Positions 3-7,095 of a stretch of DNA of 13,453 bases are shown here, piece by piece. The DNA comes from an archaeon. Lineage in GTDB: Archaea; Asgardarchaeota; Thorarchaeia; Thorarchaeales; Thorarchaeaceae. The position numbers were made by a program, and so were the translations under genes. The stretch covers positions 1 through 13,453 of the forward strand of contig JAJRZD010000037.1 of assembly GCA_024275415.1 (NCBI GenBank), written 5' to 3'. Position 1 is the first letter of the stretch. Each line of letters begins with the position of its first letter. The notes below the pieces were generated by a model. The model was not told where the DNA came from. It made no database searches and saw only the letters and a program-made list of their open reading frames with translations.

Positions 3-845
3 CTTGCTGAAGTAGAGTCACGAGATGAGATCCTGCGAGGTGCACTGGTCACCTTTGATGGTCATATATTGACTTCTAATCTGCGAGCTTATGAAATCGA
101 AGCGCTCCTCGACCATCTAGAACATTCTGATTTTCCTGAAGACTGTACTGAGCCAAAGCTGTTAGAACATACTTCTCTTGAGTCTGGAACCTCGTTCTAT
201 GTTTATCCTATTGACCATAACTGCTTGGGTGTGTTCATTGTCGAAGTTGGAACGAAAGATGCAGAGATATACTCTGCAATGGTGAACCCATTCATTAACC
301 TTGTGAGGACAGTTGACCTGAGTGAGATGAAAAAGCTCCATCCCAAGGCCCAGGATCAATACACTGGGTTTTATGAGCATGATGTCTTGATCCCTACGAC
401 TGCACATACGGCAATACTGGACAACGCAAAAGACGTTCTTGCTGATATGACCCCCGACGCCAAAATGAATGCGATTGCAATCATCAAAGCGATTGACGGA
501 AAACAGACCGTACAAGAGATAATGGAGAAGACTGGGGTATCAAAGGAAACCATCACCGAATCGTTGGCGATTCTGATCTCACGAGGTTTCATACAGGTGG
601 CAAAACTATTTCCCGTCATGGGGAAGAGAGATGACCGGTTCTCCGCTTACTTGGAGGTCATAGGAATCCCTAAGAGGGCGTATGACATTGTTGATTCAGT
701 ATGGAAGTATTGCACAGGTGGTTACTCCATAAGAGAAATATCTGAGAAAAGCGGAATACACGCAGGAAGAATCATGGAAGTCCTTCGGTCACTTGGAACC
801 TATGTGACATGGCAGCATGACAGGAGAATCGAGTATGACAGGTAA
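3..845 (+). CDS. Roadblock/LC7 (MglB/LAMTOR-like) domain + tandem winged helix-turn-helix protein, 5'-truncated by the window edge
   Basis: The frame is open from nt 3 (LAEVESRDEILRGALVTFDGHILTSNL...), so the track's TTG start at 69 is probably internal. The N-terminal ~100 aa follow Roadblock topology: helix, GALVT-FDG-HILTSN hairpin, helix, three strands (LLEHTSLES / SFYVYPI / CLGVFIVE), helix. The C-terminal half has two similar wHTH-like units: IIKAIDGKQTVQEIMEKTGVSKETITESLAILISRGFI and VWKYCTGGYSIREISEKSGIHAGRIMEVLRSLG. Confidence 0.72.
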   Translation, partial: LAEVESRDEILRGALVTFDGHILTSNLRAYEIEALLDHLEHSDFPEDCTEPKLLEHTSLESGTSFYVYPIDHNCLGVFIVEVGTKDAEIYSAMVNPFINLVRTVDLSEMKKLHPKAQDQYTGFYEHDVLIPTTAHTAILDNAKDVLADMTPDAKMNAIAIIKAIDGKQTVQEIMEKTGVSKETITESLAILISRGFIQVAKLFPVMGKRDDRFSAYLEVIGIPKRAYDIVDSVWKYCTGGYSIREISEKSGIHAGRIMEVLRSLGTYVTWQHDRRIEYDR

Positions 846-1587
846 GATTGTAAGTATCCATTCATTCAGAGGGGGAACTGGGAAGTCCAACATCGCAGCT
901 AACCTTGCTGCTGTGGCTGCTTTGGAAGGAAAACGGATAGCTGTCATGGATACTGATATGGCATCGCCAGGGATACATGTCATCTTCGGGCAGGGACGTA
1001 AGAAACTCAAGTACACCCTTAATGACTACCTCAGAGGCGAGTGTGACATCACTCAGACCTGCATGGACATGACCAGCGAACTCGGCATAAAAAAAGGAAA
1101 GGTGTTCCTAATCCCAAGCTCGATGACTGCCACAGATATCACAAGAATTCTCCGCGAGGGATATGAGGTCAGCGACCTCCGGAATGGGTTCACAGAAGTG
1201 ATTAAGCAGAAAGACCTTGACTATCTCATCATTGATACGCATCCCGGCTTGGATCGAGAAACCCTACTTTCGATGGCGACTGCTGACTATCTTTTTGTTG
1301 TCGCACGGATTGACGAGCAGGACCTGCTTGGAACAGCTGCCACTCTGAGCGTGGCCAGGAAGCTTCAGGTTCCAGATATTAGGATCATCATCAACAAGAA
1401 ACCATCCATCTATGAGGACAAGACTATCATTAGAGAGGTGGAAACGAAGTTCAAGGCTCGCGTTGCCACAATAATCCCACTGCTTCCTATCCTCATTGAG
1501 GCGGGTAGCAGATACATCGTTTCGCTACGCCATCCAGATAACGAGTTCACAAAAAGCATGTACGATCTTTACAAAGTGATGGTCTAA
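835..1587 (+). CDS. MinD/ParA-family (SIMIBI) P-loop ATPase, atypical RGGTGKS subfamily
   Basis: Contains KIVSIHSFRGGTGKS (deviant Walker A), RIAVMDTD (Walker A'), DYLIIDTHPG (Walker B) and IIINK. ATG at 835 is preferred over 817: it follows a GGAG at 822-825 and overlaps the upstream gene's stop by 11 nt. Confidence 0.92.
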   Translation: MTGKIVSIHSFRGGTGKSNIAANLAAVAALEGKRIAVMDTDMASPGIHVIFGQGRKKLKYTLNDYLRGECDITQTCMDMTSELGIKKGKVFLIPSSMTATDITRILREGYEVSDLRNGFTEVIKQKDLDYLIIDTHPGLDRETLLSMATADYLFVVARIDEQDLLGTAATLSVARKLQVPDIRIIINKKPSIYEDKTIIREVETKFKARVATIIPLLPILIEAGSRYIVSLRHPDNEFTKSMYDLYKVMV

Positions 1588-1826: not shown

Positions 1827-2273
1827 ATGTCAATCGAAGTTCGTGTTGCAACGGCCCATGACCGGCAATCACTGAAAGAATTCTATGCGCGTGAAGGACT
1901 GGACTTCAAGAACCTGACCTCACGAATAACTCCTGCTGCAGGAGGGATTGCCAGTGAAACAATGTTCATTGTAGCAGTGACAGATTCTATGGTGGTCGCA
2001 GCTATGCGATTGGACATTGGGCAGGATCCCCTGCTTGGAAAGGTGGGCTTCGTCCAGCATTTCGAGATTGAAGATGCTTTGGAGAGTACGGATCTTGGGA
2101 AACGGATGTTGGAGAAGGCTTCCCAGATTGGGGAGGAAAGGAGTCTCCGATGCTTGGAAGCACTGGTACCTGAGGATCGAAAGGAAGTCATAAACCTCTT
2201 CAAGACATCGGAGTTCAAGGAAGATCACAAGGAGATTCTTCTGAGAAAGGACTTCAAATCACGGATATTCTAG
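1827..2273 (+). CDS. GNAT-fold N-acetyltransferase-like protein (degenerate acetyl-CoA motif)
   Basis: Has the N-terminal IEVRVATAHD pattern (typical 'IR.A...D'), FIVAV...VVAAMRL strands, a GFVQHFEI strand, then LGKRMLEKA, CLEALV and INLFKTSEF, matching GNAT motif A/B spacing at 148 aa. Confidence 0.75.
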   Translation: MSIEVRVATAHDRQSLKEFYAREGLDFKNLTSRITPAAGGIASETMFIVAVTDSMVVAAMRLDIGQDPLLGKVGFVQHFEIEDALESTDLGKRMLEKASQIGEERSLRCLEALVPEDRKEVINLFKTSEFKEDHKEILLRKDFKSRIF

Positions 2274-6339: not shown

Positions 6340-7095
6340 TTGACTCCACAGGTGGAAGGCATCATCCGGAAACCTGTTGGAGCCAATGTTGCTTTTCTTT
6401 TGGTGCATGGGTTCTGTACTGATTATGACGAGCTTGCGAGCTTGGGCGAGTTGCTCGAATCTGAAGGGATGGCGTCTTTTGCCGTAAGACTGGCTGGGCA
6501 CGGAAGTTCACCCGAGGATCTTGCGACAACCACATGGAAAGATTGGTATGATTCTGTAGAATCCGCATACAGGGAAGTGCAGTCATGGAATGTGCAACAT
6601 GTATTTGTTGCGGGCTTGTCCATGGGTGCAGCTCTCACTCTCTATCTGGCGACACGAGAACCGACTATCGATGGGATTGTCATCATCTCTCCCGCAATCA
6701 AAGTAGGCGGACTGTTGGGAAAGCTTGTCCCAATCATCCGTATGTTCAAAAAATACCGTGCGGTAGATTTGTCGTATATCCCAAAGATGTACGACCTTCC
6801 GCGAACCAGGTATGATAGAGAGCCTCTTTCTGCGTTACAAGAACTCTTGCGATTCACAGGGGAAGTCCGCAAAGTGCTGCACGAGGTCACAGTTCCTATT
6901 CTTGTCGTAAAAGCAGGTGCTGATAAGACCGTGAATCCAACTAATTCTGATTACGTCTATGACAATGTTGCCTCGCCCCAAAAAGAGATTGTGACAATTG
7001 ATGGTGCTGAGCATGTAATCACTTGTCATCCCACTAGGAAAGAAGCGTACCCCCATATTCTGAGGTTCATTAACGAAGTCATTTTGGGTAATTGA
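6340..7095 (+). CDS. Alpha/beta-hydrolase carboxylesterase (Est30/YvaK, monoacylglycerol-lipase-like)
   Basis: Has the VHGF oxyanion motif, RLAGHG, nucleophile elbow GLSMG, catalytic Asp in GADKTV and His in AEHVIT. The TTG start is preceded by GAGGT (6327-6331) and lies 18 nt after the upstream stop. Confidence 0.92.
   Translation: MTPQVEGIIRKPVGANVAFLLVHGFCTDYDELASLGELLESEGMASFAVRLAGHGSSPEDLATTTWKDWYDSVESAYREVQSWNVQHVFVAGLSMGAALTLYLATREPTIDGIVIISPAIKVGGLLGKLVPIIRMFKKYRAVDLSYIPKMYDLPRTRYDREPLSALQELLRFTGEVRKVLHEVTVPILVVKAGADKTVNPTNSDYVYDNVASPQKEIVTIDGAEHVITCHPTRKEAYPHILRFINEVILGN

Follow-up and report, generated by a model that had tools for sequence, protein, structure and literature searches.

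The first 1,587 positions of the DNA analysed here, a 13,453-nt stretch of a Thorarchaeaceae genome (contig JAJRZD010000037.1 of assembly GCA_024275415.1; hereafter the window), carry two overlapping genes. One encodes a protein, B, which combines a longin domain, a Roadblock domain and two winged helices, and the other encodes an ATPase of the ParA/MinD type. The link between the two genes is real and old, and they form part of a vertically inherited module of Thorarchaeaceae and Hermodarchaeota (Thor and Hermod below). In this module, the Asgard proteins most like NPRL2 and NPRL3 are stably wired to a ParA/MinD ATPase. From the architecture of the proteins, the coupling of their genes and their co-inheritance, we infer, with moderate confidence, that the best explanation is a switch formed by a longin platform and the ATPase.

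The gene pair spans a contig boundary

Two open reading frames (ORFs) on the same strand fill positions 3–1587, one at 3–845 (280 amino acids (aa), open at its 5′ end) and one at 817/835–1587. The start of the second is placed at ATG 835, which matches the start position of the orthologues in the alignment and is preceded by AGGAG (822–826), a Shine-Dalgarno-like motif 8 nt upstream. The stop codon of the first gene, TAA, lies at 843–845, in agreement with the 11-nt overlap reported in an original prediction made from the window sequence.

Position 3 is not the start of the first gene; it proves to be a contig edge. Contig C14 begins with the window, and positions 1–141 of the window are 100% identical to positions 6868–7008 of C64, a second contig of the same assembly. 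The frame of the first gene runs upstream into C64 as far as a GTG at 6417, which is preceded by GGTGGAG. Once joined, the gene, which we call B, has 431 codons: the 3′ 280 lie in the window, and the 5′ 151, encoding the longin domain, on C64 (6417–7008). The full-length protein is collinear with its close homologues, which are all 425–433 aa long; the named ones among them are from Thorarchaeota. We consider the join of C64 and C14 sound because the gene order matches that on long contigs of relatives. As the contig break falls inside B, annotation would yield two partial ORFs. The identical 141-base contig ends resemble a k-mer overlap produced by an assembler.

The pair of B and the ATPase is conserved across two lineages

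About 30 Thorarchaeaceae loci share one gene order: a gene for a membrane protein with a helix-hairpin-helix tail (membrane-HhH; opposite strand), the gene for a B paralog termed A, then B, the ATPase gene and a gene for a 148-aa protein. In 17 Hermodarchaeota loci, the order is membrane-HhH, B and ATPase, and all remaining neighbours differ from those in Thor; the encoded proteins are ~32% (B) and 50–54% (ATPase) identical to the window copies. A sister family (f2, one genome) has the B–ATPase pair alone, and no A orthologue was found in the Hermod or f2 genomes. B and the ATPase gene always lie on the same strand; in relatives, they overlap by up to 20 nt or are separated by up to ~100 nt. 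A survey of gene neighbourhoods had been proposed as a check of the original prediction, and it confirmed the adjacency in Thorarchaeaceae, Hermodarchaeota and the sister family, amid otherwise different neighbours.

Presence and absence follow the same pattern. Among 86 genomes of the family, A/B occurs together with the ATPase in 70, neither is present in 12 (two of which are at least 92% complete), four, all of them fragmented assemblies, have A/B alone, and no genome has the ATPase alone. Because related genomes do not count as independent samples, this co-occurrence is to be read as a pattern rather than a statistical test. A quick maximum-likelihood tree groups every ATPase that has a B neighbour in one clade, which has very short internal branches and 99% support in the Shimodaira–Hasegawa-like approximate likelihood-ratio test (SH-aLRT). 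The same genome also contains a second cassette (C106:3108–4528, minus strand). It encodes a distant ParA paralog of 269 aa with a Lys-type Walker A motif, HSYKGGTGKT, whose gene overlaps by 4 nt that of a 204-aa protein with a longin domain of the A/B type (E ~5e-10). The pairing of longin and ParA proteins therefore recurs.

The adjacency could also reflect inherited synteny with no functional link, given that the whole neighbourhood is syntenic within each family and few independent lineages were compared. However, the pair persists while all neighbours except the membrane-HhH gene change among Thor, Hermod and f2, the start and stop codons of the two genes overlap, and their presence and absence are strictly joint. 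Together with the second ParA–longin pair in the same genome, this leaves synteny as the sole cause very unlikely indeed, the least likely of the explanations weighed here.

B combines a longin domain, a Roadblock domain and two winged helices

The structure of B was assessed with an AlphaFold2 model of a full-length homologue (predicted local distance difference test, pLDDT, 70.6), which is 85% identical over its full length to the same-genus orthologue in locus L030. The model comprises a poorly resolved longin-like N-terminus, then a Roadblock domain, then two winged helices; in the models, these two are preceded by long helices. The Roadblock unit is modelled with a pLDDT of 75–90 and shows the order of elements α-β-β-α-β-β-β-α, that of the Roadblock/LC7 fold. 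Searched on its own with Foldseek, it matches structures of MglB, MglC and Asgard Roadblock proteins with target-normalised TM-scores of 0.56–0.69. For the part of B within the window, the models and matches thus bear out the proposed Roadblock domain and two winged helix-turn-helix (wHTH) units; the true N-terminus, however, is the longin domain on C64.

When the whole B model was searched, the top Foldseek matches were multi-longin proteins (Fuzzy/Inturned, NPRL2/3 and Mon1/Ccz1). All 38 B homologues weakly match Fuz_longin_1, and 19 of the 38 weakly match the Pfam family HTH_NPRL3 at E ≤ 1 (best E 3.7e-5). The Pfam scan gave no HTH_NPRL3 match below 0.01 for the window's own copy of B, and one related Asgard protein lies above the cutoff of that family (29.5 versus 27.2 bits). 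A profile search of B against PDB sequences returned nothing significant, the best match being a MarR-family regulator (E 0.061). A conserved, basic linker (net charge +1 to +4; low pLDDT) connects the longin domain to the Roadblock domain. The winged helices of B are near neutral in charge.

The Pfam matches first suggested a tri-longin guanine nucleotide exchange factor (GEF) of the Mon1–Ccz1 or Fuzzy–Inturned kind. This candidate was rejected because its domain count does not fit and because A is closest to NPRL2/3. These RabGEFs contain three consecutive longin/Roadblock-type domains, whereas in B only a longin and a Roadblock domain precede the two winged helices, and A has one longin domain.

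The paralog A resembles NPRL2 and NPRL3

A is encoded directly upstream of B (C64:5448–6338; 296 aa). It is a paralog of B that shares its longin domain and both winged helices and lacks the Roadblock domain. The model of A is good (pLDDT 83; predicted TM-score, pTM, 0.74), and its N-terminal domain is a classical longin with the order β-β-α-β-β-β-α-α and Z-scores of 15.5 to VAMP7 and 13 to SRX. The 11 best whole-chain Foldseek matches of A are all NPRL2 or NPRL3 chains of GATOR1/SEACIT (E 2.5e-8 to 8.7e-6). The corresponding TM-scores are low (0.2–0.3) because the domain arrangement differs. HTH_NPRL3 is matched by five of the 26 members of the A set at E ≤ 1. GAP (GTPase-activating protein) longins have a catalytic Arg finger and a GP motif; at the sequence level, a G-x-P is present ahead of the second strand in A and some B proteins. 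Judged by these models, the B/A family is NPRL2/NPRL3-like.

The winged helices of A are acidic (pI 4.1–5.5), with the exception of winged helix 2 in two copies from genus g12 (pI 6.4 and 8.0). The charges of the winged helices argue against classical DNA binding and fit the protein-binding role of the C-terminal region of NPRL2/3. DNA binding by these domains, one of the two roles originally suggested for them, is therefore doubtful.

The ATPase carries an Arg-type Walker A motif

The product of the second gene is, on the strength of its profile matches, a SIMIBI ATPase, as had been proposed. It lies above the Pfam gathering thresholds of AAA_31 (59.8 bits; cutoff 27), ParA (51.5; 27.1) and CbiA (48.3; 25.4). 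Its nearest solved relative is A. fulgidus MinD-1 (E 2.4e-13), and FleN is also among the solved relatives. All 22 aligned orthologues carry HSFRGGTGKSN, DTD..SPG, REGYEV and IDTHPG, and D39, T40, D41, S44, P45 and G46 are invariant among them. The ATPase reads FRGGTGKS where the standard signature is xKGGxGK[ST], with R12 in place of the signature Lys. This deviant Walker A recurs in 70 of the 150 nearest cluster representatives.

Cell-division MinD was considered as an identity for the ATPase and rejected. At 75.8 bits, the protein falls far below the cutoff of TIGR01969 (minD_arch, 201.75), the 22-orthologue alignment contains no C-terminal membrane-targeting extension, and the window ORFs scanned gave no match to the MinE family. 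Nor did they match ParB or FlhF, in line with the earlier statement that none of the three occurs in the window. Archaeal and bacterial MinD belong to the same fold family; the differences here are the Arg in place of the signature Lys and the lack of a membrane-targeting tail.

Li, Burroughs and Aravind (bioRxiv 10.64898/2026.10.19.760177) define the ConB2 assemblage of ParA proteins by an Arg in Walker A and a PG after the sensor-1 DxD, and the ATPase has both marks. This brings into consideration a ParA–wHTH conflict system directed against mobile elements, in which the winged helices would sense invader DNA, the ConB2 ParA would coat or sequester it and the longins would aid multimerisation. 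Li et al. describe mostly archaeal ParA–wHTH pairs, some with profilin/longin-like fusions. The module is also dispensable, having been lost as a unit in 12 family genomes, an Eco57I-type methyltransferase gene adjoins it in Hermodarchaeota, and TIR-fused relatives of the ATPase exist. On the other hand, the module is single-copy and vertically inherited, and occupies a fixed chromosomal site among metabolic genes (MTD, AFOR). A conflict system would be expected to evolve rapidly and to be patchily distributed, which, the 12 losses aside, is not what is seen: no protein of the region is better conserved than the ATPase (77–94% identity within the family, versus 44–72% for B and 54–65% for AFOR), and the divergence of A and B is no more rapid than that of AFOR. 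No effector gene is present, the winged helices of A are acidic, and PADLOC gave only weak generic P-loop and HTH matches. A comparison by hhalign of family A with the helix–wHTH proteins that flank ATPase orthologues in three other Asgard families, described below, showed no relation (probability 0.9%). We regard a conflict system as possible, though unlikely.

The ATPase subfamily is large, with 272 cluster representatives at E < 1e-30, bacterial ones included. Relatives at 36–45% identity are fused to receiver, HisKA, PAS, Cache-HAMP or TIR domains, some of them to PAS plus HTH. Unfused relatives (42–49% identity) adjoin a Cache-HAMP gene, a receiver-GAF gene or an overlapping 151-aa gene. 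These sensor fusions and neighbours suggest that the clade serves in most cases as a switch connected to sensory modules. In three relatives (P0133, P0136 and P0155), HisKA, with or without a receiver domain, is fused to the ParA-like domain and no HATPase_c match is listed. In these HisKA–ParA fusions, the ParA domain appears as if it replaced the ATP-binding domain of the kinase.

Two further explanations bear on the same evidence. In a ParA-type positioning or segregation system, similar to SegAB or ParAB, B/A would stimulate the ATPase as an adaptor for cargo or DNA, which the membrane-HhH protein would tether to the membrane. The family membership of the ATPase (ParA/MinD), the TrmB-type winged helices of the adjacent protein, the conserved basic linker in B and the RadA-like HhH at the end of the membrane protein all point in this direction. 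Such a role is nevertheless distinctly unlikely, given that the winged helices are acidic or neutral, that the module is absent from 12 family genomes and that the nearest ATPase relatives connect to sensory domains instead of DNA adaptors; neither a repeat nor a centromere-like site was noticed, though no search for one was made. Alternatively, B and A could be winged-helix transcription factors gated by the ATPase, in the manner of FleN and FleQ, with the longin and Roadblock domains as sensors of ligands or partners. HTH matches of the TrmB, MarR and Lrs14 types would agree with this, as would the presence of FleN among the solved relatives and of PAS plus HTH fusions among the other relatives of the ATPase. 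However, the domain charges speak against DNA binding, and the tandem winged helices are closest to the protein-binding C-terminal parts of NPRL2/NPRL3, which makes gated transcription factors highly improbable.

A longin platform may act with the ATPase as a switch

In the explanation that we favour, a switch of longin platform and ATPase, the module would consist of B as a scaffold, its paralog A (in Thorarchaeaceae), the translationally coupled ATPase with its Arg-type Walker A and, usually, the membrane-HhH protein. The ATPase would serve as an ATP-dependent dimerisation switch. The longin/Roadblock platform of B/A would bind it in a nucleotide-dependent manner, as such platforms bind small GTPases, and would either tune ATP hydrolysis or read the state of the ATPase. 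The winged helices could relay this state to a partner, for example the tail of the membrane protein, or to DNA. We further speculate that the basic linker that separates the longin domain of B from its Roadblock domain could contact the ATPase, by analogy with the activator peptides of ParB or MinE; these are short and basic, and the linker is similar to them in kind.

Several observations weigh against this explanation. Physical binding of B to the ATPase and an effect on ATP hydrolysis are so far predictions. A complex prediction with B and the ATPase supplied as alignments (L030 orthologues first) gave interface scores (ipSAE) of 0.00 and 0.01 against a mark of 0.32, which speaks neither for nor against binding. 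In genus g12 (L041 and L042), B is missing and A abuts the ATPase gene, and the Roadblock domain is to that extent dispensable. Since A lacks this domain and stands alone beside the ATPase in g12, the Roadblock domain, on which the original prediction centred, is not the constant partner element. In addition, the module is not essential, as its absence from 12 family genomes indicates, and the synteny of the whole region within each family leaves few independent comparisons (Thor, Hermod and f2).

The partners also occur apart. ATPase orthologues in three other Asgard families (f17–f19, L071–L074; 47–51% identity) have no A/B neighbour and are flanked by a tetratricopeptide repeat (TPR) protein, a protein of 110–137 aa and a protein of 200–230 aa with a long helix and a wHTH domain. 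From these neighbours, the partner of the ATPase appears replaceable. A-like proteins of other Asgard lineages, in turn, have no ParA neighbour. As both the ATPases and the A-like proteins of other lineages are unpaired, the pairing seems to have arisen at the base of the Thor–Hermod group.

Two side observations concern these lineages. The arrangement in f17–f19 fits the simple ParA–wHTH form of Li et al. In genus g12, the whole module is missing from 6 of 17 genomes, and from its losses the module seems to be decaying in that genus.

A more specific form of the longin-platform switch would make A/B a pre-eukaryotic longin dimer of the NPRL2/NPRL3 type, acting on the SIMIBI ATPase in a catalytic, GAP-like way and sensing the membrane protein, which resembles the major facilitator superfamily (MFS), through its HhH tail. 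The module would then be a transporter-coupled sensor of nutrients or state in which the class of NTPase has been swapped. We consider this form quite improbable; if true, it would bear on the origin of GATOR1-type signalling.

Neighbouring genes and features of the locus

Upstream on C64 lie A, the membrane-HhH gene, MTD and TackOD1. A small GTPase just upstream of the window had been named as a possible real partner that would overturn the original prediction; it is ruled out for the 6.4 kb of C64 and for related contigs. No small GTPase gene was found in the joined 20 kb (including the 6.4 kb of C64) or related loci, and no DEPDC5-like gene among the scanned ORFs of the same regions; a genome-wide search was made for neither.

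The membrane-HhH protein is MFS-like, with a DxxGRK motif and a RadA-type HhH cytoplasmic tail, and its gene is usually divergently transcribed. As this gene is the only further neighbour common to Thor and Hermod loci, its product is a candidate anchor or input of the module. In Hermodarchaeota, a gene for an N6-methyltransferase of the Eco57I/TaqI_C type lies beside the membrane-HhH gene in the loci that reach there (65–77% identity; L037 8939–10612 and L050–L061). In other Thor contigs (L005 1680–2234), a THEP1-type NTPase gene (NTPase_1) precedes the module by ~6 kb, and in another Asgard family (L064 6851–7411) one lies ~0.8 kb away from the A-like gene, which may be chance.

The 148-aa gene that follows the ATPase gene does not occur at the Hermodarchaeota and f2 loci and probably lies outside the core module. 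A small antisense ORF lies at 1584–1733 of the window (minus strand), where a 42-aa gene is called in relatives (L006 4614–4742 and a Logan contig). Coordinates of the features in the window are collected in Table 1.

Table 1. Features of the B–ATPase locus, in window coordinates
Feature	Position	Strand	Basis
B, 3′ 280 of 431 codons	3..845	+	Frame joined to C64; collinearity with homologues
Roadblock domain of B (~residues 140–258 of the full protein; first helix begins on C64; limits approximate)	3..323	+	AlphaFold2 topology; Foldseek
Winged helix 1 of B, TrmB-like	420..617	+	Pfam TrmB at residues 166–201 of the window ORF (E 3.7e-9); AlphaFold2 helices and hairpin
Winged helix 2 of B, like the NPRL3 C-terminal HTH in relatives	618..842	+	HTH_NPRL3 matches in relatives
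ParA/MinD-type ATPase, 250 aa, ConB2 type	835..1587	+	Pfam; structure relatives; orthologue alignment
Deviant Walker A HSFRGGTGKSN, Arg for signature Lys	856..888	+	Invariant in 22 orthologues
148-aa gene, weakly GNAT-like	1827..2273	+	After the ATPase in Thorarchaeaceae only

Comparison with known systems

Textbooks present longin and Roadblock domains as platforms for small GTPases, and the abundance of both in Asgard archaea has served as an argument for trafficking and nutrient signalling of a proto-eukaryotic kind. If the partnership described here is physical, such platforms would not be GTPase-specific, and longin proteins counted as 'eukaryotic signatures' in Asgard archaea could not be read as evidence for pathways of the Rag/GATOR kind. 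The module would also offer a conserved test case, not defence-like in appearance, for the ConB2 clade, to which a recent preprint ascribes mainly a role in immunity.

Parts of this picture have been published as computational predictions, both for the NPRL2-like family and for ParA beside winged-helix/longin-like proteins or MglB, and the system cannot be called undescribed, as it originally was. Liu et al. (bioRxiv 10.1101/2020.10.19.343400) reported an 'NPRL2-like' family of Thorarchaeota with the same domain organisation, found in most Thor metagenome-assembled genomes. According to Li et al., the winged-helix protein paired with ParA can carry a profilin/longin-like domain, and in some bacteria ParA displaces MglA beside MglB, although that ParA belongs to a different clade, PriB1. 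The main text of Li et al. names no Thor or Asgard example, and the conserved three-gene Thor/Hermod module with its NPRL2/3-like pair is named in the main text of neither study. A literature search returned nothing on an archaeal pair of longin/Roadblock and MinD/ParA proteins.

The ParA–wHTH systems of Li et al. share with the module the ConB2 marks and the archaeal pairing with a winged-helix protein, and differ from it in that the module is conserved, single-copy, syntenic and without an effector. Also close is NPRL2–NPRL3 (yeast Npr2–Npr3), the core of GATOR1/SEACIT, which likewise joins an N-terminal longin to a C-terminal winged-helix region; the two paralogous genes A and B, side by side, add to the likeness. 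The differences are that the conserved gene partner here is a ParA/MinD ATPase and no Rag-like GTPase gene lies at the locus, that B has an extra Roadblock domain, and that Hermodarchaeota have B only. The module is thus neither a cell-division MinD system nor a proto-GATOR1 with a Rag GTPase. What it has in common with MglB–MglA, Ragulator–Rag and SRX–SRβ is a Roadblock and/or longin protein encoded beside a dimerising or switching P-loop NTPase, which in those systems is a TRAFAC GTPase and here a SIMIBI ATPase.

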